A stretch of 60,139 bases of DNA, the filler included, from Jimgerdemannia flammicorona (lineage: Eukaryota): NCBI GenBank assembly GCA_003990765.1. It is 2 parts of 2 records of this genome, joined end to end, with 100 filler letters (N's around TTAATTAATTAA, not from the genome) between each part and the next. Parts side by side here need not be neighbours in the genome. Positions count along the whole stretch, not along the records: positions 30,121 to 60,139 come from RBNJ01000459.1; 1 more part is not named here. One strand, 5' to 3'. The translations under genes and the position numbers were made by a program. Positions 9,397-60,139 of the stretch are shown here, piece after piece. The number at the start of each line of letters is the position of its first letter. Position 1 is the first letter of the stretch. Below the pieces are notes generated by a model. That model saw nothing but the letters and a program-made list of their open reading frames with translations, ran no database searches and had not been told where the DNA came from.

Positions 9397-9810
9397 CTCC
9401 CACTCAATAAGATATATAAATCTAACAAAAAAGAAAAGAGAATGCAAACTAGAATAAAAAGCAATGCAAAAACTAGAAATATATATTATCTAGAATTACA
9501 ACTATCTAGAAATTTTCATTGGTTGAAAAGTGTTTTATAATACCCAAAATACTTACAAAATCTACTCATAGATAAGAAATACAATATTAATATAAGATAT
9601 AGATGTAAATAATGTAAAAATAGTAAAAATATAGTAAGGGAGGTTTTTTGGAGCCTGAAAAATATCCTGTGATTAACCACTAAACTAGCATATTGCTCAT
9701 AAGATCCATTCCCTATATATATAGCTTGAACTTTGGCTTTGAAAGAACTTTTATAAGTGAATTGACAATCTTATACTCTGTAGGGATATATTCCAAGTAT
9801 ATAGTCCTAC

Positions 9811-28605: not shown

Positions 28606-29874
28606 GTCACTCCTTTCTCCACTATTATACTAATCATAAGGTTTTGGTATGTAACCTTCTGAGTCCCTTTTCCACAACTTTTATCCCCTCTGCCTCAGGT
28701 TGGTTTGCTGTACCTGTTGCAGAATAGTGGGAGAGAGGCAATGGTGATGAGTTGTCCTTGTATTGGTGTCTGATCAGTGCTTCCTCTACTTTTTTATAGT
28801 TTCTGGTACCTCTAGCTGTATTTGAAGTATACTCATTTTGGTGCAGCACTTTCTTTCTTTTGCCATCATCAATAAGGTATCATCTTAGTATATTATAAGC
28901 TATATAGAAAGTAGTGCTCTCAACAAATTGAATCAAAGATCCAATTTGATTCAAGATTTAATTTGAATTCTATTTTTTGAAATATAATAACTCAATGAAA
29001 AAACATCCAAATTTAATAATCTTTAGCTTGTTAGATTTCTCTATATAAAAGGAATCTAACAAGCTAAAGATCATTAAATTTGGATATGTTTTTATTTAGT
29101 TATTATATTTCTAAAAATAGTGTTTGAATCAGACCCTCAATTCAATTCAAATTCAATTCAATTCAAACTTGATTTAAATTGAAAAATTCTCAATTTAATT
29201 TGATTTGAATGATCCTCAATTTGATTCAATTCAAATTGATTTGATTCATTTGAGAGCACTAATAGGGAGTCAGTCAACCTTAGGTATCAAGTACTAGTAT
29301 AGATTATCTGCAGATCTTCAGTATCTATAGTGGGGTCCTCTGAGCTTTAGCAAGCTTCCTGATAAGCACAGTTTTGACATAGATGACTTTTTTTCAGTTA
29401 AAATCAGGATGAGAGAGAAGATAGTTATCACAGATTGAAAGAAGAGTGATTATGATAAATTAGTAGAATATTAGACTAGTGAGAGTCATTAGAGTTAATA
29501 TGAGTACTATATTGGTGGGGTCTTTTAATTAGTGCAGAGTAGTTAGATAGTAGGTGTCACTCTCAGTAACTCTCAATAATATGTAAGATTAGGCTCCAAT
29601 TATTGGAAGTTATTAGAGGGCCCAAGACTACCCAGATTAGGTATCTTGACTATACTTAACTAGAACTGAGAGCTGATATGGCAATATGATTAAGACTTAT
29701 AGACTTGAGTAGTGAGGTATTAGAGATCTTCTCTTATCTTATATATAAGTTCTCTCTTTATCTTATCAGAGAGAACTAGATCCTATTCACTATTCTATTT
29801 TTTTAGGGAGTTTTTCTTTATCTGTTGCTCTATTTGTGATAGCAGAGATTATTCTATTCAGCTTCAGTATGGTT

Positions 29875-32900: not shown

Positions 32901-35779
32901 CTCCAGCAGTCCCCAATCTCCAGACCTTATTCCCGCCACCTGCCAATATTTCCAACCACCTCCATTTCTCAACCCTCCCACAATACTCTATCCTCCAATA
33001 AGGAAGAATTTAGCTACCAATGTCCAGGCCCATCCTCATTTTCCCCAAACCTCTCCCCTCCAAGCAGCCCCCAGTGATCAGACTACGGACACCATACTAC
33101 TTCCAGTACTGACCAGACATCAGCTCCCCAACACTCTGCCATTAGAACCCAGTCAATCCTGGAGCCCAGCCCTGCTGCCCAGTGAGTGTACACCTGCTGA
33201 TCAGCCCAAAAATGTCTTCCTGAGTCTACTAGAGAACACAACCTCTCCATCTCCAACCAGTCACCCAACCCACCACTTTCACCCCATACACCTCTCCCTC
33301 TATCAGTTCTGTCCATCTCATTATCCTGTACCATGTTGAAGTCACCCCCCATACAGTCTAGCCCAACTTCTCTCAATACACCAGCCTCTTTCAATCTGCA
33401 AATCCATTCCACCCTCTCCCCTCTCTCAGCTGGGCAGTAACAAGACCCAACTGTCAGCAAGCCCCATCCAGGCCTCTTCCACACTCCCCACACCACCCGA
33501 GACCCCCAATGTCCAATATCCCCAATGTCCCCCATCCCTTTCTGAATGAGAATACACACTTTCCCCCTCCAAACAGCTGCACCCCCCCATTTCTTAGTCC
33601 AACTCTGTAAGTCCACATCTGCCTCATAACGAACATTCTGCAATAAGAAGAGATCTGCATTTAGTCCCTTAAGCCAACCAAATATATACTTCCTCCTAGC
33701 CACCCCCTGTAACCCATTAATGTTCAATGAGAATATCCTAGTTATACTATTCATATTGAAGAAATATTACAATAGAGACCCCAACCTATAATTCCATACT
33801 CATCTCATCCCCTGCCAGATCCAAGTGCCACTCCACTTCCAAGTCACCCTCCGCATTATCCTGAGCATCCAGTGCCCCCAAGATTTCCTGACATTCCACC
33901 CTATCCACTTCCTCCATATCCGCCTGGTAGTCTAAGCAGACTGCATGCCACTTCTCCAGTCTCTTCCTTGAGTTCCACAAGAAAAGTGCCCTATTGCTTG
34001 CAATCCTCCTAAGTTCCTCCTCTTGCTGATCATCAACTTGATATTCAACCAACTCCAGGAGGACAGCCAGGATCTCATTCCTCATCTTCCTTGACACCTC
34101 TTCCCCCTGAAGTATCTCCTCCCAATGCTTCTCCTCTATCACCCTGAAGTCCTCACCCCCCAGCTCTTCAGCTGCTACCCCTTCCAGGGTCTTCCACATC
34201 CACTTCTCCTCATTCACCGCCTCTGTCACCCCCTGAGCAATCTGTCCCCCATCTACCTCAGGGTCCACCAGCACGCTCCTCCTCACTGACTCATCCCACT
34301 CCTCATCCAACACATCCATCAGCTCCTCCTCCCCCTCTGCTCCATCTGGAACACTATATTGAGGGTGCACACTCTCACCCATTTCGGCATCTGCCTCCAA
34401 ATTGCTCTCCCTCCCCTCCCCCACTTCAATCCAAGCCCCACCCTGGACCATCTCTCTCCCCTCAGCCCAGGCACTCTTCTGCAATCCTGCAACTCCCTCC
34501 TCGGAGCTTCCACTGGCCCTACCCCCACCCAACTTCACCAACAGCTCCTTCTGGATCTTCCTCCCCTGCATCTTCTCTCAGGCCCCCTTCTCCATCTGGA
34601 CCCTCTTTCCATCCACCTCTCCCACCACTGTCCTGGCTTCAAACTCCTTCCAGGCCAATCTCCTCCTTACAACTGCCCCTTCCAGATCCTCCAGAGCCTC
34701 CAACAGGTCCTCCTCCTCCTCCTGGATCCCCTTCACCCTTGTGACCTTATACTCTACTGGTCCCCACCTCAGCATTACTGGCCAGTCCCTCGACTTCCCC
34801 ATATTCTCCTTCCCAGCCAGCCTCACCCTGACATCAACATCGCCAGTTCTAAGCTCTGTACCCTCCCAGACCTTAAACCCAATATCTACAATCTCACCAT
34901 ACTCCTTGATCGCCTCCACAACCAACTCCCTGGTCCTCTTCTTTGATATGGTGGGAAGATCCAACATCATCAACTGCACCACTCAGGGGTCCCAGTGCAT
35001 ATACCGGGCCATAGGGACCACAACCCCACTAACTATCACCTCCTTCTCCATGGCTGCCAACAAGGCGTCTTCCTCCTCAAACCCCACCTCAACCCCTTCC
35101 TTTCCCCTCAAAAACTTCACCAATGCTGCTCCCTTAGCCTCCTGTGCCACCAGCCCCAAAATTATCCTCACCGTCACTGCCAAGCCCCAGAAGCACATTG
35201 TGACCATGAATTCTGACCTCAACTTCTTGAGTAATGGGGCCAACACCATGCCCATTACCCCATCGGTCAGGTCCCCAGGCCTTATACCCACTCCCAGTTC
35301 TGAATTGCCAATCACTATCACATCTGGATTTTTTGCCAGATCCCCAGTCACAGCCCCATCAATAGTCACATCTCCAGCCCCTACTCCCACTCCTCCTCTA
35401 CCACCTGAGACTCCCCTGGGTACACCTTCCTATCCCACAGCAGCAGCTGTCGATGTCATTCCTAGGCCTAGCCAACCATTAAGGCTGGAGGTCATCTTTC
35501 CCATTCTGACCTTGTCAGTGAAGGTCAACCTCTCTCCTCCTCTCTGCCTTAGCCTGCTCCTCCCTCTACCACCAGGTCCTCCGCTAGCCATCGAGGCCCC
35601 CAGCATTCCCAAACCATCTCTCCTCCTCCCCACCTGTTGCCAGCCAAAGGTGCTGTCACCCTCCTGGCCAGTATGCTCACCAGTTTGATTGTTGCCATCC
35701 ATGTTGATAGTCACTGGACACCGAAAATATAGTAAAAAGTATTGTCTGAGTCTTGTGTCATCTGAATGTTACTGGTGAA
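29877..35779 (-). mobile_element. LINE copy 3, subfamily B, apparently full length (spans the scaffold gap)
   Basis: Poly(T) 29877-29926 followed by the family 3' end (tagtcacttggac); ORF2 from 33754 (MNSITRIFSLNINGL...GGDFNMV), RT and zf-RVT; ORF1 ~35610-33786; conserved 5' leader. Confidence 0.93.
30021..30120. other. Assembly gap with artificial TTAATTAATTAA linker
   Basis: 100-nt N-run with a central six-frame-stop 12-mer at 30065-30076. Confidence 0.97.
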
Positions 35780-39814: not shown

Positions 39815-42530
39815 TGTAAGCACACAACCTCCAAGTCACCAAAATCATATAGTATCCTCAGAACTAATTTGGAAACCACATGCAAGACTACAAAACAAGT
39901 TACTGAAGAGATCATCTGGTTATACAAAATATGCCAGCAAGCACAAGAACTCACCACCAAGATATAAGAATACTAGAAGAAGTACTACAACCATAAGACT
40001 AACTCTGAACCACTATAACTAGTTTGGTATACTATACTATTACAAAAGAAAACCAAAAGTACCAAACTCAAATCAAGACAAGAAGAACCCTATCTCATCT
40101 ACTAAAAGGTTCACAAACTGCACTTATTAACTCAAGATCAAGATATATCACAACTATACAAGACCTCATTACTTAGCAGAAGCAAAACACATTTGAACAA
40201 CTTCATTCGCTCTATCTGTGTCACCTCCATTGGAGAGTAACAGATACTTCATCTGAACTCAAGAAAGCCAACATTGTCAAAACCAATCTCAAGCCATCCA
40301 CATGACAGATATTACTACTAGAAATTGTCTCAGATTATAGAAAATATCATTTCCAAGAGATTTGAACCCCCAGCTATAACATTGGAAGCCCTTGCCCTAG
40401 ATGAGAATGGCCAGTCCTCGCAAATGCACCAGTAGACCAAAAAAAAAGAGAACCAAGACCTGTTATCCTTGTACAACTACTGCCACTAAGGACAGCCTTA
40501 ATCTTACAAGAGATAGAAGTGACAATACCTTGAAACTGATGATATCAGAAGTCAGAAAACTGCTCAGACTTTGCCAGCAATGATGTCATCAATAGTGATG
40601 TCATCAAAGACTACCCAGATAGTGTCTAAACCTATAAATAGCTTAGCAGTCATAGTATAGTTAGATTAGTCTTGTACAACATGACTGTGAACTGACTCAG
40701 TAGTCAGATAATCTCCTAATATATCAGATCACACTTGTACTATATGACTACATTCTGACTCTTTTTTTTTTTTTTTTTTTTTTTTTGTTTAATAGACTCT
40801 ATGTCCCGCAGATTTTTATTGGAAGGGAACCTAGACTATATAGGCCAAAACCCTCCCCCACCACCCATCAAGCACTGCCCTCCCATTAACCTAGACTAGC
40901 TATTGTCCAGCAGCTTGACCATGCCAGACGCAGCAGGGCAAAGTAGCCTGCACCTCATTCTGTGCACCATGCTCTCCCTACTACCAGGGGAAACCCAGCC
41001 ATATGCCAACGACCGAAAGCGCACGCCCGAGAACCCAACATATGTACAAGGCCACACCCGAGCCGAATAGAATAGCCCCTACCACCCCAAAGAGAATGAC
41101 AGACAAAAAAAAAGCCCTCATCAAAGCACAACATAGTGGGTAGGGCCTGGTTCTCCCAGTCAAGGTGAGTAGAGGACTTATATGTGAGGTGGGAGGAGAC
41201 CCCCAATACCCCACTACTCAAGCCTGTAGGCCTCGATCATGTTGCTGTATCAGCTCCCAGTTCCAGTTGAGTGTAGCCAAGATGTCTGAAATGGGTAGCC
41301 TCGGGCCCCTCAATCCCCCCTGACAACCAGGGCCCAACCCCATGAATCGCCAAAAGAAGCCGAGAGTGACACCTACTACCTAATCACACCGCACCAATCA
41401 AAAGGCCCCACTGAAGCAGCACCCACCCCAGCCCCGATGACCGCCCCCAGCCTGGCACCCTACTGGTTCATCATAATCACCCTTCCTCCTATCTGTGATG
41501 GCCATCTCCTCTCCCATCCTGACATCACCCAAAAAACAGTCATCTATGCCAGAACTGCACTCGCCGGGAAGCTCGCCAAAGCCAGAGGGCCCCACCATAG
41601 GCACCGAGGATCTGCAGGTAACCTATACTGAGCACTTAATGCCCAAGGTCGGCCGACTCCCTATGTAGCCTGAGACACACCGAGACAACTCCTTGTTGGC
41701 GATAGCAAAAGGAAGAAGGCACTGCACCAAAATGGGTACACCCCAGATGCAGCTGAAGGTACCAGAATCCGCAAAAAAGTGGAGAAATCACTGATCCAAC
41801 ACTGATAAAGGGGCAACTCATTACTATTGCCCTCCTCCCACTATGCTCCTATAGACACAACAAACCAACCCGAGGTAGAGGGGGTAATATTAGGGGAAAG
41901 GGGACTCAGAAGATTGCCTACCAAACCTTGTGACCAGTAAGGTAGTGGAGAAAGAAGCTTACTACATTCTGACTCAGCAAGGTACTAAGTACTATATCCA
42001 TATTTAGTATAGTCTAGATAGCTCCTCACTAGTATAAATACCCCCTCCCCCAGACCTCAGAATCTCAGACTTGAAAGACCTGAACAATCCAAACACAACT
42101 CCTGAGTACTTTCCCACAATATTCCTTTACACAACTACTCTTAGTATAGCAATATCATGAATAGCAAATAAACCTATTTAATAACCTATAAACTACTCTT
42201 AAGTAAATCTGCTCTCCATTAGATCCCACTCCTAACCCTGTCATAAAATTTCCTAATTGGGTATTGTCTGTAGTGATACATCAATTCAACTAAGCTGGTC
42301 TTAGTTTCTTGAACTTCCTGAAATACAAAAAATCCTGAACATCCAGAACTAGTCTGAAAAAGAACTTTGGTTGAGACATCAATCCGATCTAGAAATCAAT
42401 AAGCATAGAGAATGTACTCTATATGAAATTGATCTTGATTATAAGAAAACAGTCTTCCAGAACATCCAGAACTTCCAGAAACCCCTTCCAAAACTACATA
42501 ATAGTTACCCTAAAAAGCAACCCTCTTACA
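39815..42530 (+). mobile_element. Long solo LTR (~1.5 kb without the nested retroposon) containing a decayed ORF
   Basis: TGTAAG...CTTACA termini; perfect 5-bp TSD GTAGG (39810-39814 and 42531-42535) splitting the LINE zf-RVT; TATAAATA at 42033 and AATAAA at ~42167; no internal terminal direct repeats seen. Confidence 0.85.
40762..41960 (-). mobile_element. Non-autonomous retroposon copy 2 (youngest)
   Basis: Perfect 15-bp TSD actacattctgactc (40747-40761 and 41961-41975); 25-nt poly(A) tail; retains many CpGs. Confidence 0.93.
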
Positions 42531-43093: not shown

Positions 43094-43366
43094 ATTTATT
43101 TATAAAATTTCAACTATATACTTTTTTATAAATATCTACTTTGATGTTTTTTATTGTATTTGTCACCCTTCTTACCAAAACTAAAGAAAGGTATATAGGT
43201 GAGAGATATGTAAGTGAGGTATACAGGTACATTTGACTATGCACTATATTCACATTTATTATCATAGTTGAATATACATTGCTCCATTCACGTCCCACTA
43301 ACGACGCCCGGAACCATCTTAGGTACTTGAACTACCTTGCCACCCACTCCCAAAATCTTTCTCATA

Positions 43367-43520
43367 TCACAGACAGAGCTTACAATGAATGTCTGTGGGG
43401 AGATTGTAGCCGAGCTGATTGCCGCACACGAGGGCGGCAAGGACGTGGACCTGAATCAAATCAAAACCCGCGTCTTGAGCCGTTGCGAGGACACTCAACA
43501 AATAAACCAAGGCCACTGCT
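43367..43520 (+). pseudogene. ELP3: ELP3 (Elongator catalytic subunit) N-terminal fragment
   Basis: SQTELTMNVCGEIVAELIAAHEGGKDVDLNQIKTRVLSR matches the ELP3 N-terminus ([35 protein letters not shown]). Similarity continues briefly in a shifted frame (GHSTNKPR) and then stops; there is no room for the radical-SAM/HAT domains. Confidence 0.8.
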
Positions 43521-43795
43521 TTGCTGGTGCTGTTCAAGGATCACATAGAGGAGGTATCCAATATATAGCTCTTCTCTTTTTATTTGAAGAAAATTTAGTT
43601 GTTAGAGACTGTGCAGGGCGGCCTAAACTTTGGCATCTCCACTACAGGGCGCACGACACAGGACCCGTATATACTCTATGAAGTGTATTGGCGGAACAAA
43701 AAAGTCCTTGTTTTCACCACTGCACCCTCAACAACCGCCTGACCCGCAACTGAAGAAGCCGCCACAACACCCCTCTATATGTATCGCTCGCTCGT

Positions 43796-43912
43796 TCACT
43801 TCTTGCTTTTAGAGTTTACATTAACGAAATGGTATATGACGATGAGGATCATGGTGAGCGAGCCGAGGACGTTCGCGATAGTACCGAGTTGCGTGTCTGT
43901 AATTGTCATCAT
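43796..43912 (-). CDS. OST4: Oligosaccharyltransferase subunit OST4 (38 aa), intact; probable 5'-UTR intron ~44017-43921
   Basis: MMTITDTQLGTIANVLGSLTMILIVIYHFVNVNSKSKK* matches the Ost4 family (MITD.QL...AN.LG....LIV.YH.V); lies in a CpG-retaining island. Confidence 0.93.
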   Translation of the reverse strand: MMTITDTQLGTIANVLGSLTMILIVIYHFVNVNSKSKK

Positions 43913-44437
43913 GGTAGTGGCTATTGTAGTCTTGGGAATAGAAACACAAGGTAATGAGCGGCAAGAGACAATACGGCTTGTTAAGGAAGGGGGACTTGGA
44001 AGTGAACGAGCACTCACCTGTTGCAAGGAAGAGAGGGGCGGGGGGTTGAAAGAGAGAGAGGTGGATACGCGAGGCGACTGTTCAAAATGGTATGAACGAA
44101 TAGGGTGTGGACAGATCGGAGCTGACGTCATCTGCAAAGCCACCGTCACCCCACTAAATCGTTGGACCCTATGAACCTTTAATTCACAGGCATTTGCTCT
44201 TTATAGAAGTATCTCAAAATAAGTCTTAAAAAAAGTTATTAGTTTTCTTCAACTTATTAGTTTATTTATATATTAAATAAAAATATATTATATTAGTTAC
44301 TAATATTTGGTTTTATTATAAATATATAATTAAAATATTAAATATTAATAAAATATTTGATAATAATATTAATATAACTCTTATTATAGAAACTTATTAA
44401 GAAAATATAATAAAACTCCATGCTGATAGAATTAATA

Positions 44438-46400: not shown

Positions 46401-47049
46401 TTAGTACCATCTACTAGATCAGCAGGAAAGACAGAGACCCCAGAGACTAGAACCTCTGAATATAGTTATATAGTCAACTACTTTCTAAGTTACTACTAAG
46501 TTGATTCAGAGGACAAGGTTTCTTTACCCAAATAGAAGTATACCCCTTGTTTACTCTTCCTCCAACTTATAACTAAGATGGATACCAATTCTTAAGACAA
46601 TAAGAAATTAACAACCAGGAGTATCATTTCCAAGCAATGGGATATTGTAACTATGGAAGACATCCAGACTGCTGAGACTACAGACATCAGAAGATTCACC
46701 TCAGTTATGATATTGTAATCCACACTTTGAAGAGAGGAGATAACAGAGGCCAGATCTGAAGAAGCCAGATCAAGAAGCCAAAAAGAAGGATCCTTAAGAT
46801 CTATAATTTAGGAGAAGACATCTTAGCTCTCATCAGATATACAACCTACTAAGAATAGATAGAAGATGCTACCAACTTCATGAAAGCCCTAGACTCAACA
46901 GGAAGAAGGGGAATCAACTATCTCTGAGACCCCTCTATTGAAGCCAGATGGTCACACCTAAACCTCAGAGCCTGGAGACTCTCTGCTAATAGAGCTTTAG
47001 CCCTAGAACAGCCTGAACTCAGCAAGGACATTGCCCAGTATGCTCTGCT

Positions 47050-47435
47050 ATATCTAAAGGCCAAACCCCAGACCAAAACTTACCCAGAAGATGTGAGATA
47101 TGACCTTCACAGTCTGGAAGATGAATCTATTAAGCTTGAAAAGACCTTCATAATCAGAATAAGACTAGTTATACAGCCACCCTAAGGAGCTTACATCCAA
47201 CTGACCTTAAGATCTGAACTTGCCAGACAAGAAATAACTATAAAAGGAGAAACTATTGACCCAGGATATACAGGTGAAATCAAGGTCATCCTACACAATA
47301 GTAATATAGAATAGTACTAAATTATTAGAGGACAGAAGATTGCCCAAGCAGTCTTTATGAAGGTCAAGATCTCACAGTTATAAGAAGTTTCCAAATTAAC
47401 TGAAGGAATGAGACAAGCTAAAGGATTTGGAAGTT
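47050..47435 (+). pseudogene. dut: dUTPase domain of gypsy B, upstream of RT
   Basis: YPEDVRYDL...LTLRSELA...GETIDPGYTGEIKVIL...GQKIAQAV...RQAKGFGS corresponds to dUTPase motifs I-V. Confidence 0.9.
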
Positions 47436-50318
47436 TAGATAAGAAGGAAGTATATCTCCTTCAAGTCAATTATCTCAAGAAGAATATCTCCCAGCAAGTA
47501 TACTACCAACCAGTCAAACTGCACAAGAACCTTATTCTGGAGCCTGGAGAACAAACCACCTTTGAAATCTTTGCACCATCTGATCTCAGAAATCTCTTCT
47601 TTGAACCCAATGAAGATATTCTACATCTGGATATAGAAGGATATACATTCTCTGACAAGATAAACCCAGTTCACTTCTGAGCAATCAACCAAAGTTGGGA
47701 AACTATCATCTTGCTAAAAGGAATCATCATAGGACATCTAGTGCCTTTTCTTAACCAAACCTATAGAGAAGTTTATAAACTAAACTTATTGGAAAATGGT
47801 AAAAGATCCTAGAAGAAAGGAAAGGCCCCTCTGTGATCCAGGAGACAGTGAAGCCTTCCACCAACATTGAAGAAGAACTGATATCCCAACAATGACAATA
47901 ACTAGTAGAACTCCTCAACAAATATCAAGATATCTTCACTACTGATTATGACAACCTGTCATAGAACCCATCATATCACCATAGCATAAATACAGAAAAT
48001 GCAATACCCATCTGGCAGAAACCCTATAGAATACTCTATCACTTAAAAACATTTGAAAAAGAGTACATTTAAGAATTCTTAGACAATGGAGTCATCCAAC
48101 TCTCTACCAGCCCCTGGGCTAGCCCTATACTTATTATATTAAAGAAAGGAGGATAGAGACTCTGTATGGATTACAGAAAACTCAATTCAGTCACTAAAAA
48201 GAATATCTATTCTTTGCCCAGAATCAATGACCTCTTGGATTAACTATAAGATGCCAGATACTTCAGTAGTATAGACCTTTTTGCAGAATTCCACGAAATC
48301 TCCATAGACCCCAAAGACATTCAAAAAACAGCCTTTCTTGCTCTAGGAAAACTATTTGAATACCTCCAAATGCCTTTTGGACTTTACAATATACTCCTCA
48401 CCTTTCAGAGGATGATAAATTCAGTCTATACTCCTTTGATCCACTACTGTCTGATTATATATATAGATGATTCCAACATCTATTCAGTAAATTTTGAAGA
48501 ACACCTACACCATCTAGAGAAATTCTTCAAGCTCACCTACAAGAACCATCTGAGACTAAATATAAAGAAATGCTACTTTGGGAAACAGAAACTTAAATTT
48601 CTTAAATTTATAGTTTTGAAAGAAGGAACCCATGTAGACTTAAAGAAAACTGAGAAGATCAACAACTGGCCAGTACCCAAGACTCCAAAGGAAACACTAT
48701 CATTCCTGATACTAGTATCCTACTATAGAAGATTTATCAAGGACTTTGCCCAAATTGCTGCCCCAATTCAAGTCCTTCTCAAGAAAGGAGTACCTTATAA
48801 ATAGATAGAATTATAAGAGAAAGCCTTCAAAGAACTCAAGAACTACATGACCACAGCATCAATCCTTGTATACCCCAATCTACAGAAGCCATTCATCTTA
48901 TATACAGATGCTTCCAAAGATGGCCTAAGAACAGTTCTAGCCCAAGAAGGACCTGACTAATAATACTATGTAATAGCTTATACAAGCTGAGCTACCAATC
49001 AGCAGCAGATGAACTATGGTAGCACCAAACTAGAATGCCTTGCAGTCATATGAGTAGTCACCCTGTTCAAGCATTACTTCATCAGAAAAAGATTCACTCT
49101 GATCACAGACTATGCAGCCCTCAAATGGCTATTCAACTATAAGAAACCTATCAGAATTCTGGCCCATTGGATCCTTATCCTTCAGAATTACAAAATCACC
49201 ATCATCCACAAAACAGAGAAAGCTCACAACAATGTTGATATACTTTCCCACCAGCCCCAATGAATCAGAAGAAAGGTATCCCAAGAAACTACACTCTAAA
49301 GAAAGCTCTTCAGATCATTAAGACACAAGAAGATCTCATTCAAAAAGAACACCAGAAAGCCTACTAAGGATAAGAAAATATAGAAGAAAAGCTATGAACA
49401 ATACATCAGCATTAGCCCAATCTCAGAATACAAGTCCAGGATATATTTAAAAAATATGACACCTGCTAGAAGTACCAAGAAAGGAAGAATTATCAAGCAC
49501 TACTATAATCAATCACACTATCAGACAATATCTTTCAGAGATGGGGAGTAGATATAATTAGACTCCTACCAGTTATACCAAGAAGAAATAAGTATATTCT
49601 AGTATTTATAGAATATCTGACCAAATGGCCCAAGGCTTTTCCAATGAAAATTGCAGATACCTTAACCATTGTAGGTCTTCTTTATAAACTCACACTCAGA
49701 TATAGACCCCCAGAAGAACTCATCTCTGACCGAGGCACAGAATTCATCAATAACATAATATAAGTTATGCCTAAATTTACAAGATCCACCTCAAATAAAC
49801 CACATCATACTACTCTCAGACCAATGGTATGACAGAAAGAATGAACCAGACCATTAAGAGAGAACTTGCCCAAATCAATTCTACTAATTGGGATCTTTGC
49901 TTACCTGAGATCCTATGGGAAATTCAGAATACCTCTATTGCTTCTACCAAACAAAAGCCATCTGAAATGATGTTTGTCAAGAAAACCAAAACTGCTGACC
50001 ATGAGAATCTTAGAGACCTCCTTAAGAAGGCAAAACAGTTATATAATCAAGCTCAAGCCTAGATTATTAAGGCTCAAGAAAGACAAAAGAAGTACTATAA
50101 TCAGAAACAGAAAGATCAGAAGATCAAGATTGGAGATCAAGTACTAGTTTGGAGAAGTATGATTGAAATGAACTTTGCTACTAAATTGAAGCCCAAATAA
50201 GAAGGATCTTATCTTATATATAACATTTGAGGAACCAATATCTATTTAAGAAGCATAGATAGACAGACTCTCAGAATACTAGTATATATCAACTGCCTCA
50301 AGATATATCTCTCTCATC

Positions 50319-50806
50319 ATGAACCAGACAATTGACCAGTACCTCTAGACCCTTGTTCTGAGTTCATTCTAATCACTCCCAGTTTCCCTTCCACAATTCC
50401 AATAAGCCAATGGAAACCCTCTTTGGCAAATCTAGATCTATTAAGAGAATCTCACTTTGGCCAGATATTTACTGCAAGTCCACTAGCTGCAGGCCTACTA
50501 TGCAATTGGAGAATAGTTGTAGAACCTTCCAGTAGCAGATCTGACCTATATTAGAAAAATATCACTGCTGCAGACAGATTATATACAATTTATAAACAAA
50601 ATGTCCCAGCATTAACACAAGTACAATTTCTGCTGAATGACATTCAAAACATGAATTCTGCTATCTATTAGAGTATTATCAACTATATCAAAATCCTGTT
50701 TCTAGAGGAAGAAGAATCTGTTGAGTGAAGTAACTCTGATCCAAATGAAGATACCAGTTCAGGTATTGATGCTGAAGATGCTTACATATATTGGAATGAT
50801 GACTAA
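50319..50806 (+). pseudogene. Accessory ORF between integrase and 3' LTR of gypsy B (unknown function, acidic tail)
   Basis: ATG overlaps the integrase end; ~160 codons with one frameshift; stops revert to CAA/CAG/CGA; contains AYYAIGE.L and AADRLYTIYK. Confidence 0.6.
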
Positions 50807-52302: not shown

Positions 52303-52750
52303 TATAATAGTTGATCTAAATTAAGAATATAAATCAGAAAAATAGATATTTGATTATAGTACCTAAATCTAATTTTCAAATATAGCTTAGGTATATAAAT
52401 AACAGTCATATTTAGTAAATATAAAAAACTTTAGCAATTGTTAAAGATTCTATAGATATCAAAATTCTTAATATTAAAAAGATTTAATACTTATAAAAAG
52501 TGACTCATAATTTAGCCACCCTATAGTTAGCAAACTTATATAAATATCTCTAATATTTAAAGTAAATAAACCTCAGATCAAAATAGTTCAAAGCAAAAGA
52601 GAAAGTAAGAGAACTAGTAAGCCTGCAGACAGATACACTTTGAACTCATCCACCCCTATATCCAGAAGACTCTATAGAGTCAAAGAAGATTAAGTTTTTA
52701 AGATATAAAAATCTGATATACTTCTATAGTTATATATCCACTACATTATA
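52303..52750 (+). repeat. Solo LTR, heavily mutated copy of the 53780-54255 family
   Basis: 52510-52750 aligns with the reverse complement of 53780-54030 and ends ccactacattata. Confidence 0.8.
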
Positions 52751-53779
52751 ACTTAGTATCCATTGATTGATAATTTGGAATTAACTTACAGTGAAATATA
52801 TAGTCCTAAGTTAAAAATTTATATGAGTCAAATATGATGAACCAGGGGTCAATGAACTGACTGCAGCTAGTCAATCAGGTCAGACAAGCAAATTTACCAA
52901 TGAGGAAAAATAGTCACTTCCATATAGAAAAAATACAAAACCCCACCTGACAAAAATACAGAAAAATATGAAATCTTAATAAAAATAAGTAGGTTTTGTC
53001 AGCCTTGAGATATCAAAAAAAAAAAGCCACATCTAACCAGGTTAAGTGTACCTTAATAAAAGTCATACAGAATTATTTCTACCAAGGTATGCAACTGAGA
53101 TATACTGACTTCTATTATTATTTTTACAAGCAAAAATCTATGTTAATGAAAACAAACACATTGAGCATATTCTCAAATTTCTGAGGCAATATCTATATTA
53201 ATAGTTTGATACAGATTTATGAAAAAATTACATTATAATAATATCTTTTATAAAAGGTAAGAAATTTCAGTGAAATCAGTAGTAGTTATATAGCAATTGT
53301 ACTATTCACTAATAATATATATATATATATATGAAACCCAGTTATACATTTATATTATAATATCTTTATAAGTTCATTATATGAAGAAATCTGCAGAATT
53401 CAGCAAAATATATATAAATATTATATAACTATAACTTAAAAAATTAAGGTATGCCAATTTTATATAAATGAAGAATAAAGTATAAAGAGTGATAAATTTT
53501 GATGTAGTCATATAGTAATTGGGCTATTTATTGATAGAAATATCATAATGTCTTCATGAGTTCATATTGTAGAGAAATCTATAGAATTCAGCAAAAATGC
53601 ATATAAATACTATATAACTATAGTTTAAAAGATTGAAATATACTAATTTCTGATTATGGCTATATGATTTAGCTTTAAGTAATAATTCAAGAAGCTTAAG
53701 ACCCATCAAGAGGCTCAATATATATATGTTGTATTGATTTTATCATAGGTTGATAAATAGTATATATTTGGCTCAATAT

Positions 53780-54255
53780 TGTAATGTAGTGGATGCTTAT
53801 TCTTGAAAGTACGTCGGATTTCTATATCTTGAAAACTTGACTGTTCTGACTCTCGCAGAGTCTCTTGAAGTTGCAGGGGAGGGTGGGTGAGTTCGAAGTA
53901 TATCTGCCCACAGGCTTACTAGTTCCTTTACTATCTCTTTGCTTTGAACTATTTCGATCTGAGGTTTATTCACTCAAAGATACTGGGTTATTTATACAAG
54001 TTTGCTAGCTATGAGAGGGTGGCTAAGTAATAAATGAGTTATTTGGACTTTGTCAAAACATTTGGACAATGTCTAAATGCTATACTAAATCGGGGTATCT
54101 GATTTGGATAATGTCCAAAATTTAGACAATATCTAAGAATTTAGACAATGTCGAAATCGAGGACTGCTAACTATAATACTATACTACTTTGGGAATGGGT
54201 GCGATCAAGTGTCTATTCCCTATTTCCTTCTTCCAAATCTGGCTGTACCATCACA
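53780..54255 (-). repeat. Solo LTR (476 bp)
   Basis: TGTGATG...ATTACA on the minus strand; ATAT on both flanks; TATAAATA/AATAAA core. Confidence 0.85.
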
Positions 54256-57200
54256 ATATATATATTATCAAATTGCTTATATTATAGCTAGTATATAATA
54301 AATAATAGTAGCAAGTTCAGCACATATATGGTCTATATATATAGTAAGCTCAATATATATATAGTAAGCTTATATTGATAACAATATATTATCAATGAGA
54401 ATTGATTATTTATATTATAGTCAGTATATATAGTAAGCTCAGTATATATGTATATGGCAAGTATATATAGTAAGCTCAATATATATATAGCAAGCTTATG
54501 TTGATAAGTAGTATATGTCTGACTAAGATTAATATATCATCAATGAGAATTAATTACTTATATTATGACTAGCATATATAGTAAGCTTAATATATATATA
54601 ATGAGTATATATTGATACTAAGCAGTACATATCTGGCTAAGCTTGCTTATATCAGCTTATTGATATAAAAGCACCCCTTTTACTCTCTTTACTTTTCCAT
54701 TCCTATACTTACTTATACTCATACTCATCACTTATGCTTACACTTATACTCATTACTCATACTCATACTTATGCTTATTACTTGTTACTATAATGTATAA
54801 GCCAAACTATTAAAATTCACTCAATCTACTCACACTCATATCTATTATCTAATAAACAACATCTAATTAAGCTCAAGATATACTCTCTATAATCTGCCAT
54901 ATCAAACTTCTTGGAGAATGTAAAGTTAAATCCAAAGATATATATTTTGATCAGGAGAGAATGATCAAGCTTGAGCTTCTCAGATATATAATTGTTATTA
55001 ATATATAGCCAAATAAGGAGAAATTAGAAGACATCCTCAAGAAGATATCTGAATATATAGATTTTGACTTAGAAGTAATGATTGTGAAATATGACAAGGT
55101 ATGTATTAAATTATCACTATATATTTATTTCTTTCTTATTTTATCTAATTATCTTTCATCTATAGATTATAGTTTGGTTAAGCAACATAAAGAGACAGGT
55201 CCTTAAAGCCATCAAATTCAATCTTCTCTCTAAATTTGCTCATATTCTTTCAAATATTTTTAACCTTAACAAGAACTATCAATTCAGACAGTTAATACTC
55301 AACTCTGATAAGATATTTATGATCTATGAAAAATGCAACCCCAAGTTCAGCCTTTTGATAGATTCAATTGATAGAACATTTGACCTCAATGCTGCTCAAC
55401 AAGTGAAGTTTAAGGAGTATATAGTTAATTAGATCTGTGCAGACCCCATTTTTAAAGAAATAATTTAGATTATCTTCATATACTATAACCATAGATTGTA
55501 TCATAGATTAAAGATACTATAAAGTTTGGCCCAAATATACTAACTAAAGATATTGAATAGAAGAATAGTAGCTTTTGCTATTACTGTAATAAGTTTATAT
55601 GATGTTAATATTTTTTACTTATAGATTGTAGAATCTAATTATACTTCATTTGTTTTAGATGTATATCACTATTATAAGGTTGAAGTTTAAAGAACTAATT
55701 TAGAAGGCTTGGTATGAGAATATTCTCACAACAATCAATAGAGTTGGCTTATAAGAAATATACTAGTAATTGGATGCAGCTTAGGCTACTACAATCAAAA
55801 TACAAAAGAAGTTCAGAGATAGAGAAGTATTGGATCTAAGTGAAGAAGATCATAAGTATATTTATATATCATGTCTATCAAAATGAATTTTATATGAATA
55901 ATTGACAACTTATATAGTTTTAAATAATTAGGTACTCTCTGAGTTCTGAAAAAATATAAATAATAGTATATGAATAATTAGATTCTCTCTGAATTCTGAA
56001 AAAATGTGAATAATAATATATAAATAATTAGGTTCTTTAAAAGCTTGATGAGAAATATAAATGATAATATTGTAGTTTATATAAATATAAATATATACTT
56101 CTAAATAGTGATTTTATATTATATTCTTTAGAATAAATATGATATATTAGAAATCAGTAGAAATAAGCTATTCTTCAGCTTAAATTTGCTATTTATTAGT
56201 ATATTTAGCTAATTTCTATCAAATTCAAATTTAAATTACTTACTAATATAATCTATAAATATATTTATTTAAAAAGAAGATTCTTCAGTACTATTAGTAA
56301 GTAGTTTATAAGACTTCATATAAAGATCTCTAAAAGTATAATAGATATCATTTGTACTGATCATATACTATATAATAGTCAAACTATCAAACTTAATACT
56401 CTATCCACCTCAAATATACAACTGTTGAATATCTCATTTCAGACTTATATAATAACATCAGTACTGACATCTACTTTTTTGAAAAGAGTAGATATTATAA
56501 AGGTATTACTTTGCATAACTTGTATTATATAAATCACTCTCAAACTAGCTCTTGAATATCAGATAAAGTAAAGAATCATATATATATACATGATCATGCT
56601 TATTAACTTTGGTAAAAAGTATATCTGATAAATTACCATAGTAGATTTTCTAGTTCAAATAGGCATAAACTAGATATATATATTTTATATAATTATTATA
56701 ATATAAATGAAATGGTTGTATTTCTTTAAGTAATAGAGATTATTAGTTCAAATAAAATAGAGTTATTAAAATTAAAGTTATTAAGTGAAACTTACTATCA
56801 ATTTGATGGATTTTGTAGAAATCTAATGTTAAGATAATGTGTATTCTATCTGACATATATTTAATATATCTTTATTATATCTGTAAAGCTTCATCTCTAT
56901 GTAAAATATAAAGAAATGCAAATAAATAAATATACTATGATATGTTAATAATAATATATATATTTGACTGATATTAAAGAAATAAATAAAAATATTTACA
57001 TATTGTCTAGCTTCAATTGTATCTTTTGTTTGACAAAGTATATGAAGAGCTTTTATATCATCACTTATCAATATTTGAATAGATTCAGCAATATCATCTA
57101 CTTGTATCTTATACTTGCATAGACTTCATATATATCTGCTAACTTTAGTAGATAATAATGGATTACTTATCTATTTCTTCTCTGTATAGCTGAAATTTCA

Positions 57201-57659
57201 ATATTAATTACCACAGTTATACAAATTATAGTAATATTTACTGATTGCTGATCAAATTACTCTAGCAAGAGAATACTCTATATATTGTCATGTAGTGGTC
57301 GCTGAGTTCTTCAAATATGCCAGATTCTCTTCAAGGTATATCTCTTAGACTAACTCAAGTTGTTATAAGCAAGTTCTTATTGGAGTGCCTTCCCAAGGTC
57401 TTATAGTCCTCAAACTTCTTATCTTTAACTGTCTTGTTATCTCTTAGATTGCTTGCAAGGAAGTGTATGTATTGCACTGAGAGGAACTTGACTGAATGCA
57501 CTGAATTGACTGAAACTTGACTGACTTTATTTCGGAGGAAATAAGGGAGGTATTTATACAAAATATAATTCAATGATTGCTAAGATATAAAGCTAAATAT
57601 AAATTCCAATAACTAAAACTACTGAGTTCCAGAGCTGGCATTATTTAGTACCACATCAA

Positions 57660-57764
57660 AATACCGGTGCTGGAACAATTTTGCGTCACCTCAGAATACC
57701 GGTGCTGGCATTATCCAGTATTACATGAGAATACCGGTGCTGGCATTATCCAGTGTAACAAAGA
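57660..57764. repeat. 35-bp tandem repeat (3 copies plus a partial one) in the U3 of the LTR
   Basis: aataccggtgctgg... recurs at 57660, 57695 and 57730. Confidence 0.85.
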
Positions 57765-57767
57765 ACT

Positions 57768-58604
57768 TTAGAGCAGAAAGTTCAGGATCATGGGAGCTTC
57801 ATCATCATCATCATCACTGAAGGAGATGAGGTCCGTGAATTCGTCATGTAGGTCATGCGTCTCGCATACTTCGTCATTTTCGCGTGCCTTGATGTTGTGC
57901 GGGATGACATCATTGATGACGTCATCACGTTTGGGTGTGGCAGGAAAATCGGGAACAAGGTCTGGAGCTCTCCAGTCTATGAGGTTCTCTTCCACAAAAT
58001 AGGGGACAAATGTGGGGTCTTGGGGAGATCTAACCCGGATGCTTGGGCCTTGGAATACTGAGATCAATCCTTGCAGAAATTGGTCTGGGTTGTCCTGAAG
58101 GATAGGGTGCCAGAAGTCTTCTACTTCTTTGCTGTTGAGGGTGATGGTGGACTGGGCTTCTGTAGCTACCCTGGCTTCTAGTGCATTGATATAGTGGGAT
58201 GATAGGTCTCTGAAGTCTGAGACTCTAACATACTCCAAGTTGGGGATCGACCATGGTGCATGCCTGAAGATCTGATGGATCTTCTTTGCTGTCCTTGCCT
58301 CACGTAGGTCTATGGGGGTGGCATCTTGTAGCTCTTGAGGGCTGGCCTGTGGGAACTCCCGGCAGAGGAGGTTTCCTATTTCGTACTCCTGCCACATTTA
58401 GAGGCATTCGGTGGCAATAGTGATCCTTGTTTCCATTTCATGGTGGTAGAGGATAAAGTGATAAGGGTCTGCAGTACCCAGGTTGATGCTAGGAGTCCTT
58501 CTTGAGCAGGTCCTCATGGCTCTTCTGATGTCTTAAAATATCCTTTCCTCAACCGAGATATCTTGATGATTCCTTGACCTTGAGGTTTGGCGGGCAGCAG
58601 GCAT
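57768..58604 (-). pseudogene. LTR-embedded accessory ORF (278 codons, two TAA stops), resembling 50319-50806
   Basis: ATG at 58604 is in frame with the 209-aa ORF; both interrupting stops are TAA, revertible to CAA; TATAAAAG lies ~85 bp upstream. Confidence 0.72.
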
Positions 58605-59297
58605 TTTGTTTGTGGTAAGTCTTTGAGCTATTTTGGGATTGGGGTTCTTGTTGGTTGCTGCTACTGCGGTTCCTTGATCCTTCTTTTATATTCTTCAGGA
58701 TGCTTGTGCTGTGGTCACAATGACTCACAGTTGGTCATCGTTGCTCATCTCGCATGCCGTATGATTTTCTTGTACTCTGATCTGGTGGCTTATAAAGAAA
58801 GGCTGTCTCCTGTGCTGATGTCATCATTCTGGGGTCACCGTTACACTATCTTTCATCTATTGATATAAGATAGACAAAGGCTCTGAAGACTTGGAAGGAG
58901 CTTGACAATTTTGCAATAGTGATTCTTATTAATTATAGAGCAATTTGCAAGATTGAAATCAGTTAATACAGGCCAGCTTTTGATTGCAACTATCAATGAA
59001 TTGCTATTGTAGAAATGGTAGGAGTAGAGAGAGAGCATGATACCAAACATAGCTAGGGGATTGTTTATTATATTAGGAAGATGAAGAGAAATAGCAAGGA
59101 ACTTGTAAGTTGTTCTATTACAGTTACCCCAACTTCTCTGTCTTACTCTCAAAAATAAAAATATATACCCAAGATCACAATACTAAAGAGCATCTGATAC
59201 TTGATTCATACTGACAGCATTTCTTTTGAGGAGTTAGGGAAAATAATATTAGCAGAGGAGTTGAATTTATGACCAAGAACAAGAATAGTAGATATAT

Positions 59298-60139
59298 TGT
59301 GACGTTGGTTATGTATGATGAACTTCGACTTCATGGCTTAATGTATGCTACTGGTGAAGCACGCGATTAATAACTGAGTGCGTTCGCGGCGGTTACGGGT
59401 CGTTGGTCACGTGACAGGTCGTTCGAAACGTGCGATAATAGCGGGAGATCGTTTGTTCATTGGCTCAGGACGTCGATGGTGAGGGCGTTCGGTTGTTCAA
59501 CGATGGCGGCTCAATTGTTTAGTGGATAAGGGTGGCGATTATGCTGGCTAAGTAGCCTGGCAGCGATTAACTTGGCGGGTGTCTTGTATCCTTTGGCTGG
59601 GTATTCTTGGGTTTCCGGGTCTTGAATCTCGAATGCGCGGTCTGAATGGTGGTCTGAATGCACGGCGGTCATGGTCTTGAATCCTCGTCTGGGTCTCGGG
59701 TCTCGAATGGCGGTCTGGTCTTGAATCCTTTTCGTGGCGGCAAAACTTGAAATTCGGGCGGTCCGTGGTCTTGAATCCTTGGCTGGGTAACTTGGGTCTC
59801 GAATGGCGGCGGTCGGGTAACGTTTTCTTTCTTTCCGTGGCAAGAGAAAATTCTTTAACTCAAACTTCCGAGCAATCCATTGCTCTAGGTTGTTATCTTG
59901 TTCTCAGAATTTATCCGGTCTCTTGGAGGCAGTGTGTTTTCTCTGTAAAACTATCTGGCTGAGGTTTATTCACTCTAAGAATATGGGTTATTTATACAAG
60001 TTTGCTAGCTATGAGGGGACGCGACTAAGGCTAAGGTATACTACATTGTGGCAAGCTATGCTATTGGCTTGCACGATGTGAAGGGCTGACTTGCTGACAA
60101 GATGCTGAAAACGGTTGCACTGGATAGCAACGCTGAAAA
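59298..60139 (-). repeat. Young, CpG-rich long LTR running out of the window, with internal degenerate tandem repeats (59620-59815)
   Basis: Ends ...CGTCACA at an ATAT site; core 59959-60016 is nearly identical to 53958-54015; repeated gggtctcgaatggcgg and ggtcttgaatcct units. Confidence 0.8.

Follow-up and report, generated by a model that had tools for sequence, protein, structure and literature searches.

What kind of unit occupies positions 57286 to 58845, on the minus strand, of a stretch of Jimgerdemannia flammicorona DNA (60,139 nucleotides in all, filler between its two parts included; hereafter the window), and does the long open reading frame (ORF) inside it belong to that unit as a gene? 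The first-pass annotation, made from the sequence alone, had described a long LTR bounded by TG...CA that holds a TATA box, a 278-codon ORF, 35-bp repeats and a TATA/AATAAA core, and this anatomy could be recovered in full at the positions collected in Table 1. Our analysis makes it likely that an LTR retrotransposon, probably a Ty3/gypsy-like one, left this unit as a solo LTR, 1560 bp in length and carrying a complete, conserved protein-coding accessory gene in sense orientation within its U3. Read on the minus strand from 58845 to 57286, the element presents in order TG, TATAAAAG, the ORF, the 35-bp repeats, TATAAATA, AATAAA and CA. Its terminal inverted repeat is short, with the start TGTAAC and the end ATGACA being inverted-complementary at 4/6 positions, and its composition (44.5% G+C) stands apart from that of its flanks (22-33% G+C).

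Table 1. Features of the probable solo LTR and its ORF (positions in the window)
Feature	Position	Strand	Remarks
Solo LTR (probable)	57286..58845	-	TG...CA, 1560 bp; drawn from repeat-depth borders and PPT/PBS junctions of other copies
TGAGTCA heptamer	58721..58727	-	about 30 nt upstream of the TATAAAAG TATA box
Upstream TATA box TATAAAAG	58683..58690	-	U3, 86 nt before the ATG; seen in the sequence
ORF, 278 codons plus stop	57768..58604	-	ATG at 58604, terminal stop 57770..57768
35-bp repeat array	57629..57753	-	between ORF stop and core promoter; two full and two partial copies
Core LTR TATA box TATAAATA	57551..57558	-	seen in the sequence and in the LTR alignment
Putative poly(A) signal AATAAA	57526..57531	-	27 nt after the start of the core TATA box
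9-bp repeats ACTTGACTG (as on the plus strand)	57486..57527	-	just 3' of the poly(A) signal; Tandem Repeats Finder
Conserved U5 end CCACTACATGACA	57286..57298	-	like the ends of the short LTRs

The borders of the unit emerge from contigs of the independent public runs X3, X1 and X19, in all of which repeat depth begins at 57285 and stops at 58845; outside 57224-58924 the depth is zero in X1 and X19, and low and single-copy in X3. In other copies a PPT junction, AGGAGGAAGA followed directly by TG, sets a tract of 10 purines against the 58845 end (at least three X3 and at least four X1 contigs), and a PBS junction reading CA-A-CT-TGGTGCCCATTGG on the element strand lies before 57285 (at least one X3 and at least four X1 contigs), with a TGG-type PBS 3 nt beyond the 57286 end, these counts being taken from 18 listed loose ends, besides which 91 further ones exist. 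Among those listed, the loose ends behind 58845 read ..CAGGAGGAAGA and then TG on the element strand. The presence of PPT and PBS junctions exactly at the two ends of the unit in other copies implies that the whole 1560 bp, ORF included, is the LTR, in agreement with the long LTR originally proposed. No full-length element was seen; the junction contigs are at most 250 nt long, and the link between the ORF and the PBS-adjacent LTR consists only in the way reverse transcription works and in depth that is roughly even, the depth over the ORF in the public runs being close to that over U5.

In the window itself the flanks of the unit are single-copy and unrelated to the PPT and PBS junctions of other copies, and a blastn self-comparison recovers no second copy elsewhere in the window. 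A search of the flanks for a target-site duplication gave none that is clear (ATAT versus CTAT, alike at 3/4 positions, in AT-rich DNA); its absence would be accounted for if two elements had recombined to form the solo LTR, or if mutations had come later. The two longer PBS- and PPT-side motifs of this LTR family have no match in the window, and the 13-nt PBS motif has two matches there at two mismatches, a result equalled by 35/100 shuffles. ARAGORN detects no tRNA gene in the window.

The upstream TATA region, GAATATAAAAG, is identical at 11/11 positions in a metagenomic relative, L001, this conservation resting on two sequences, namely the window unit and L001. The leader directly before the ATG is also kept between the solo LTR and L001, although synonymous sites are saturated. 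The TGAGTCA heptamer, which we take to be an AP-1/Gcn4-type consensus, may be a chance occurrence; L001 begins at the TATA box and so does not reach it. Within the 35-bp array three ACCGGT palindromes (57663-68, 57698-703 and 57733-38) are spaced exactly 35 nt apart, and the three repeats that bear them sit 105-187 nt upstream of the core TATA box. This period, along with a blastn self-match of 40 nt at 85% and offset 70, substantiates the 35-bp repeats of the initial description; Tandem Repeats Finder does not call the array at a score of at least 30. The copy number of the array varies, with one X19 contig skipping 84 nt from 57618 to 57703. Farther downstream, the core TATA box is kept in four of the five LTRs aligned, including the short LTRs at 54k and 52k and L001, with gypsy B having TATAAAAT instead, and AATAAA is kept in four of five, the 54k LTR showing an A-to-G change. 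The core TATA box followed by the putative poly(A) signal gives an apparent U3-R-U5 order. The 9-bp array also differs in length among copies (nine listed joints skip 34-74 nt between 57445 and 57520), and the U5 end occurs as the variants CCACTACATTACA and CCACTACATTATA in the short LTRs at 53779 and 52751.

U3 contains the whole of the ORF, which runs in the sense direction behind its own upstream TATA box and is broken by exactly two in-frame stops, both TAA (58535..58533 and 58400..58398). These had been read as CAA->TAA changes, and the reading fits: intact relatives have glutamine in both alignment columns, and at position 58400 the depth differing from the window is 31.1/31.1 in X3, 998.6/1004.1 in X1 and 835/835 in X19. 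The copy in the window, with two stop codons and reduced to a solo LTR, is dead. A homologue search with the ORF protein recovered six proteins at E<=0.01 (best 3.8e-139), and the family as assembled has 16 members in six clusters; when all 1.84 billion representatives were scanned with the HMM, five clusters were returned, each of this same family. The intact relatives are 214-342 aa long at 29-90% identity. All members found are metagenome gene calls, with none from NCBI or UniRef; longer or fused forms of the protein were not found, and there was neither a locus of the family in IMG/VR nor a match in prokaryote genome contigs. A metagenome scan yielded one locus, L001, on a contig of 1345 bp, with the layout TATAAAAG, intact 323-codon ORF and then TGTATAAATA..GTGAATAAACCTCAG, the protein of which is about 55% identical to that of the window. 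Conserved across the family are an MPA.. start, a central block of residues and an acidic LNF(L) tail.

The dN/dS ratio, which the first-pass annotation had named as a check, is 0.175 (NG86), 0.316 (LWL85) or 0.304 (YN00) between the window and L001 over 275 codons. Among the copy variants in the ORF, 22 of the 33 listed fall at third codon positions (binomial p = 9e-5), and, taken singly, 21 are synonymous and 12 nonsynonymous, the variants listed being the best-supported 40 of 172 and not a random sample. We read the ORF as a real gene, evolved as protein-coding sequence under purifying selection, because intact relatives exist, the layout recurs in L001, dN/dS is 0.18-0.32 and third positions vary in excess. 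Likewise, repeat depth confined to 57285/58845 and the intact homologues of the ORF together place the unit beyond chance.

The ORF protein matches no known family. No Pfam family is recovered with the window protein at E<=10, and the 16 members yield, at E<=1, only matches with E>=0.026, far below curated cut-offs; a profile search of PDB sequences gave no match at E<=1. The best match in the ESM Atlas scores 0.83, under the lead threshold, with the Atlas's own model at a pLDDT of 0.35, and two AlphaFold runs (mean pLDDT 39.8 and 45.3) produced no usable fold. What the sequence does display is a polarity of charge: the window protein has a basic N-terminus and an acidic C-terminus ending in LNFLL, and in four of the five members examined the net charge is +4 to +8 over the first 45 residues and -15 to -17 over the last 70, with values of +1 and -8 in the fifth, P0020. 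With Kyte-Doolittle means over 19 residues that nowhere exceed 0.97, the protein has no predicted membrane segment.

To place the unit among the elements around it, the other LTRs of the window were aligned with it. Homology to the window's short LTRs, which lack the ORF, extends over its 3' third (core TATA box, AATAAA and U5), the core and U5 matching the LTRs at 54255..53779 and 52512-52751, the gypsy B 3' LTR (from 50842) and L001. The short LTRs of the window share a core TTTAGC..TGTATAAATA..AATAAACCTCAG, and those at 54k and 52k also share with the solo LTR the U5 end CCACTACAT(T/G)A(C/T)A. Their U3 is about 240-270 bp long and holds no ORF, whereas the U3 of the solo LTR measures about 1.29 kb, of which the distal 1.1 kb cannot be aligned. 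Gypsy B has the domain order dUTPase, RVT_1, RT_RNaseH and rve (dUTPase, RT, RNase H, integrase), and it is from the similarity of the LTR core to its 3' LTR that the unit is assigned to the Ty3/gypsy elements, a probable assignment. By-eye alignment had further equated the ORF protein with the ORF between the integrase and the PPT of gypsy B, and this comparison fails by every method applied. In tblastn at E<=10 the ORF protein has no match at the gypsy B post-integrase ORF, and the family HMM (--max, E<=100), run on six frames of the window, matches only the ORF unit itself. The Smith-Waterman score against the post-integrase ORF is 35, with shuffles at 31.9 +/- 4.9 and 61/300 of them reaching it, and hhalign returns a probability of 0.23% over 14 columns; the gypsy B post-integrase stretch itself gave no homologue of 79-252 aa. 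Of the proposal that an accessory gene had moved into U3, the location stands; its origin from an internal ORF is unsupported, because the gypsy B homology was the sole evidence offered for it. A simple route suggests itself, in which plus-strand priming shifts to an upstream purine tract and U3 would thereby be extended in a single step.

Several other readings of the unit have to be weighed against a gene-bearing LTR. The lack of a known domain and of a confident fold, and the stop codons of the window copy, might speak for a chance reading frame in a non-coding LTR; this is effectively refuted by relatives that keep intact frames of 214-342 codons at 29-90% identity, by the third-position excess (p = 9e-5) and by dN/dS values of 0.18-0.32. 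It is also very improbable that the true LTR starts only after the ORF, perhaps near TGATGTGGTAC (about 57650), in which case the ORF would be an ordinary post-integrase ORF and the unit the 5'-truncated tail of an element. The related LTRs of the window are indeed short (about 477 bp at 54255..53779, starting TGTGATGGTAC; the gypsy B 3' LTR starts TGATGTGATGAG), and a word like those starts occurs inside the 35-bp array, where TGATGTGGTAC resembles them. Yet the 10-purine tract of the X3 and X1 contigs adjoins the TG at 58845, upstream of the ORF, and the window copy stops at exactly 58845 against single-copy DNA, whereas no purine tract precedes the internal TGATGTGG word, which is the spacer of the repeat unit. 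At 57618 and 57642 there are just single, mutually different loose ends among those listed, and the depth over the ORF is like that over U5. The arrangement that the first-pass annotation had set against its own view, with short LTRs and the ORF present once in the interior, is contradicted, since the PPT junction lies upstream of the ORF.

Capture of host sequence is known for LTR elements, according to the available text of PMC7264820, and the failure of the distal U3 to align with related LTRs indicates that this part was acquired or replaced. Both would suit a passenger, that is, a host or foreign gene fragment transduced into U3 with no role in the life cycle, its conservation left over from an earlier life or reflecting recent spread. 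We consider this improbable: the 1.84 billion representatives hold no host paralogue or other relative beyond the five clusters of the same family, nor any longer or fused form, and dN/dS is below 0.35. Moreover, down to about 29-55% identity the ORF is unbroken and keeps its start, its tail motif and the TATA box before it, which points to long retention inside LTR-like units. A non-autonomous, LARD-like element, with the LTR ORF as its sole coding capacity and mobilised in trans by gypsy B-type elements sharing the LTR core, strikes us as unlikely too. In its favour are a core promoter, R and U5 common to the LTRs of an autonomous-type gypsy and the short LTRs, the fact that no gag-pol of the ORF-bearing LTR family is seen in the window, and PBS- and PPT-side motifs without a convincing match there. 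No finding counts directly against this reading, which is compatible with the main explanation of the LTR and its gene.

A gene inside U3 invites comparison with systems known from elsewhere. Mouse mammary tumour virus (MMTV), a vertebrate retrovirus whose Sag is a type II membrane glycoprotein, is the closest analogue in layout. Its sag gene is a superantigen ORF in the U3 of the viral LTR. The likeness is that of a sense ORF of about 300 codons wholly within the U3 of a long (>1.3 kb) LTR, and hence present in both LTRs and in solo LTRs. The protein studied here differs from Sag in having no hydrophobic segment (19-residue hydropathy mean <=0.97) and no Pfam match to the Sag family, and the solo LTR has a dedicated TATA box before the ATG. 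Lentiviral nef and foamy-virus bel2/bet are 3'-end accessory genes of complex retroviruses that reach into U3; foamy viruses use a separate internal promoter for the accessory gene, and their Tas, of about 300 aa and with an acidic C-terminal activation domain, acts on LTR elements. Like the ORF, these genes stand at the 3' end of the genomic RNA, but only a part of each falls in U3, with its promoter elsewhere than in the LTR; none shows detectable sequence similarity to the ORF protein, and a functional likeness would be read from charge layout alone. In the Cassandra TRIMs of plants the LTRs contain a 5S RNA gene with transcription of its own, and there too an independent transcription unit is copied with every LTR; theirs is a pol III RNA gene, in contrast to the protein gene here, and Rfam finds no RNA family in 56800-60139.

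Among LTR retrotransposons of plants and rotifers, the additional ORFs (aORFs) that accompany gag-pol are orphans specific to one family; most of them are found between pol and the 3' LTR, and some possess a promoter of their own (Grande gene23) and a product that is nuclear (PMC7264820). They occupy the internal region, whereas the present ORF is inside U3, and the available text of that paper contains no occurrence of 'in the LTR', 'within the LTR', 'inside the LTR' or 'LTR region'. Similarly, the ORF0 of Retrosat2 is placed upstream of gag-pol, and not within the 3.2-kb LTR, in the available text of PMC3485330. Phrase searches of the literature for LTR-borne ORFs returned MMTV papers (PMC2118998 among them) and unrelated uses of the wording only, with no case outside retroviruses, and a Glomeromycota-oriented search returned no relevant case.

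The layout suggests how such a gene might be expressed. Its own TATA box in U3 would drive transcription, polyadenylation at the LTR's AATAAA would yield an mRNA of about 1.15 kb, and each LTR, whether 5', 3' or solo, would then be a self-contained gene copy. The genomic RNA would probably start at or beyond the AATAAA, given that this signal follows the start of the core TATA box so closely, and would be polyadenylated in the 3' LTR only. As to the protein, the basic region, the acidic tail and the repeats in U3 invite a likening to retroviral transactivators of the Tas/Tax kind. A tentative guess, in which we place limited confidence, is that it may be a soluble nuclear regulator of its own LTR, acting for instance by way of the three 35-bp repeats with ACCGGT that precede the core promoter; since the protein has no recognisable domain and no usable fold, this function is proposed solely from charge layout and position. 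Bolder, and more doubtful still, is the full scenario, in which a non-retroviral retrotransposon would have made its LTR a complete gene, with TATA promoter, selected ORF of 250-340 codons and poly(A) signal, so that every LTR would be expressible and the protein would serve as a family-wide trans-acting factor, either activating the LTR via the 35-bp ACCGGT repeats or countering host silencing. Were this true, dead elements would keep feeding live ones.

LTRs are regarded as control regions without coding content, and gene predictors miss them once repeats are masked. A selected protein gene in U3 turns the solo LTR from a relic into a dispersed, possibly expressed gene copy, the role of which could be that of a shared good for the family, a control on copy number or a defence against silencing. 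The unit thus offers a system outside the vertebrate retroviruses in which to ask why accessory genes occupy the duplicated part of an element.

Re-reading of the sequence on the minus strand bore out the anatomy that the first-pass annotation had described for the 1560-bp unit, including the count of 278 codons for the ORF lying within its U3. The G+C content of the unit is 44.5% versus 22-33% in its flanks.

Features of the 1560-bp unit, listed in the sense of the element
Feature	Position	Strand	Remarks
LTR unit	58845..57286	-	starts TGTAAC, ends CCACTACATGACA
Upstream TATA box TATAAAAG	58690..58683	-	read from sequence
ORF, 278 codons	ATG 58604, terminal stop 57770..57768	-	read from sequence
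In-frame TAA breaks, exactly two	58535..58533 and 58400..58398	-	read from sequence
Three ACCGGT-bearing repeats, exact 35-nt spacing	within 57629-57753	-	read from sequence
Core TATA box TATAAATA	57558..57551	-	read from sequence
AATAAA	57531..57526	-	read from sequence
9-bp repeat run	3' of AATAAA, before unit end	-	read from sequence

The window holds no second copy of the unit, and the unit's borders were studied in contigs from three public sequencing runs, namely X3 ('organism A'), X1 (a soil metagenome) and X19 ('organism B'), aligned to positions 56900-59300. In all three runs contig depth climbs at 57285 and drops at 58845; outside these borders X1 and X19 have a depth of 0 and X3 a low, single-copy one. 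Two X3 contigs align to the right flank without a single difference, so the source of the window is organism A or something very near it. The other copies run on into common sequences at both borders. In the sense of the element, ..CTTATTCAGGAGGAAGA abuts the TG beyond 58845 (at least three X3 and at least four X1 contigs), and CA-A-CT-TGGTGCCCATTGG... is read beyond 57286 (at least one X3 and at least four X1 contigs). In these copies the LTR start is immediately preceded by a tract of 10 purines, the classical PPT junction, and a TGG-type word 3 nt past the LTR end makes the classical PBS junction. Given these junctions at its two ends, the entire 1560 bp, inclusive of the ORF, is the LTR of elements possessing an internal region, and the alternative in which the LTR is short and the ORF occurs once, internally, is contradicted. 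The junction-bearing contigs are all of 250 nt or less, and a full-length element is absent from these data. The window's own copy has neither junction and is embedded in single-copy AT-rich DNA; hence, it is a solo LTR. With two stops in its ORF as well, this copy is dead. No target-site duplication is visible at the unit, the flanks being ATAT and CTAT.

In a protein search the ORF product, with X at both stops, matched six proteins (E 3.8e-139 to 5.8e-34) representing 16 member sequences in six clusters, and scanning 1.84 billion representatives exhaustively with an HMM recovered five clusters of the ORF family and nothing else. All members are JGI or ENA metagenome gene calls. The full-length members (271, 323 and 342 aa) have in common an MPA.. 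start, a central conserved block and an acidic tail ending in ..LNF(L), and at each of the two TAA positions of the window their aligned residue is glutamine; nearly all contig depth at 58400 departs from the window base. The 1345-bp metagenome contig L001 has the same layout as the unit with an intact 323-codon ORF. Over 275 codons (54.5% identity) its comparison with the window gave dN/dS values of 0.175, 0.316 and 0.304 by three methods, with dS saturated. Among the public contigs, the 40 best supported of 172 variant rows, less four outside the ORF and three within a stretch of indels in a single X19 contig, left 33 ORF variants, of which 22 affect the third base of a codon (p = 9e-5); when each is considered alone, 21 are synonymous and 12 nonsynonymous. 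The homologs, the intact frame in L001, the low dN/dS and the third-position excess together support the ORF inside U3 being a real gene. Differences between the unit and other copies are mostly transitions. In X3, where the window has G/C and other copies A/T, G>A (55) and C>T (36) outnumber the reverse changes A>G (24) and T>C (17), a pattern suggestive of mutation biased from GC to AT in this family's copies.

The provenance of this gene had been sought in gypsy B, a degraded Ty3/gypsy element at 46770-50300 (+) with the domain order dUTPase, RVT_1, RT_RNaseH and rve, i.e. with the dUTPase domain upstream of the RT, for which self-comparison of the window found no 5' LTR. The first-pass annotation likened the unit's protein to the gypsy B ORF between integrase and PPT, and proposed that an accessory gene had moved into U3. 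The stretch compared (50372-50803) contains three stops, and no homolog of 79-252 aa was found for it. There was no match there by tblastn at E<=10, and a --max search of all six frames with the family HMM (E<=100) returned only the unit itself. The alignment made by eye is the best Smith-Waterman alignment, with a score of 35 against 31.9 +/- 4.9 for shuffles and with 61 of 300 shuffles reaching 35; the other two frames were worse. Profile comparison by hhalign gave a probability of 0.23% over 14 columns. As none of these comparisons shows similarity, a move of the gypsy B ORF into U3 is unsupported. As speculation, a gene could come to lie in U3 by a mechanistically simple route if a purine tract upstream of a 3' ORF took over plus-strand priming.

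The 3' third of the unit (TTTAGC..TGTATAAATA..AATAAA..U5) aligns with four sequences, namely the LTRs at 54255..53779 (~477 bp) and 52512-52751, the gypsy B 3' LTR (from 50842) and L001, and the conserved end CCACTACATKACA is common to the unit and the short LTRs at 54k and 52k. The distal U3 aligns with none of the four. Judged by these alignments, the ORF-bearing U3 is a variant within an LTR group whose other members have a U3 of ~250 bp and no ORF. Both short LTRs belong to the same core family and are inverted relative to each other, ~1 kb apart in very AT-rich DNA. A second LTR-like unit at 59307-60139 (-), ~460 bp from the ORF-bearing unit, in the same orientation as it and cut by the window end, has the same core TGTATAAATA..GTGAATAAACCTCAG at ~59950-60000 and an apparent end ..CCAACGTCACA at ~59307. 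The ~400 bp between them are degenerate repeats rich in G+C (words GGTCTTGAATCC and GGTCTCGAATGG); a similar word, GTCTTGAATC, adjoins the PBS of the ORF-bearing family in public contigs.

Elsewhere the window contains three copies, 77-81% alike, of a LINE-type element (Exo_endo_phos + RVT_1) at 1-6000 (-), 9800-15200 (+) and 30200-35700 (-), with an extreme strand asymmetry (GC skew of +/-0.4-0.5 over 5-6 kb at ~50% G+C). A ~1.2-kb repeat occurs in three copies 74-92% alike, at 21615-22800, 28643-29815 (direct) and 40782-41957 (inverted). The 6-kb block bounded by two of these copies has 45-47% G+C, a TPR-repeat frame at 25272-25565 (-) and no reverse transcriptase. Between repeat blocks, 43331-44200 carries fragments of host genes, an ELP3 N-terminal domain (+) and Ost4 (-); no other clearly non-repeat coding sequence was noted in the window.

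The unit's protein is without an assignable family or fold: neither it nor its family members have a significant Pfam match, it matched no PDB sequence, its best Atlas hit scored 0.83, and no longer or fused forms were found. Two AlphaFold models (mean pLDDT 39.8 and 45.3) show mostly helices and a disordered tail. The protein lacks a hydrophobic segment. Its N-terminal 45 residues are basic, and the C-terminal 70, which include hydrophobic DLIxF and LNF words, are strongly acidic.

MMTV sag is likewise an ORF inside U3, and is the closest analog in layout, albeit unrelated in sequence and protein type. Literature searches for ORFs carried in LTRs gave MMTV papers or hits using the words in another sense; this does not prove absence, and most subscription journals lie outside the search. 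Plant and rotifer LTR retrotransposons have their accessory ORFs in the internal region (PMC7264820, where phrases for an ORF in an LTR occur 0 times) and ORF0 of the long-LTR Retrosat2 sits upstream of gag-pol (PMC3485330).

The unit and L001 share GAATATAAAAG and the leader immediately 5' of the ATG despite saturated synonymous sites, albeit in a comparison of two sequences only, with a TATA-to-ATG distance of 86 nt in the window and 65 nt in L001; this fits a functional upstream TATA box. A transcript from it would reach the LTR's AATAAA ~240 nt past the stop codon, giving a predicted mRNA of ~1.15 kb wholly inside one LTR. AATAAA starts as little as 27 nt past the core TATA box, and genomic RNA probably begins at or beyond this signal, so that its polyadenylation would be confined to the 3' LTR, an arrangement known from some retroviruses. 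The ACCGGT repeats, which precede the core TATA box by 105-187 nt, differ in number among copies in public contigs. From this layout we offer, with low confidence, the working guess that the protein is a nuclear regulator of its own LTR; such a regulator may work through the three ACCGGT repeats.
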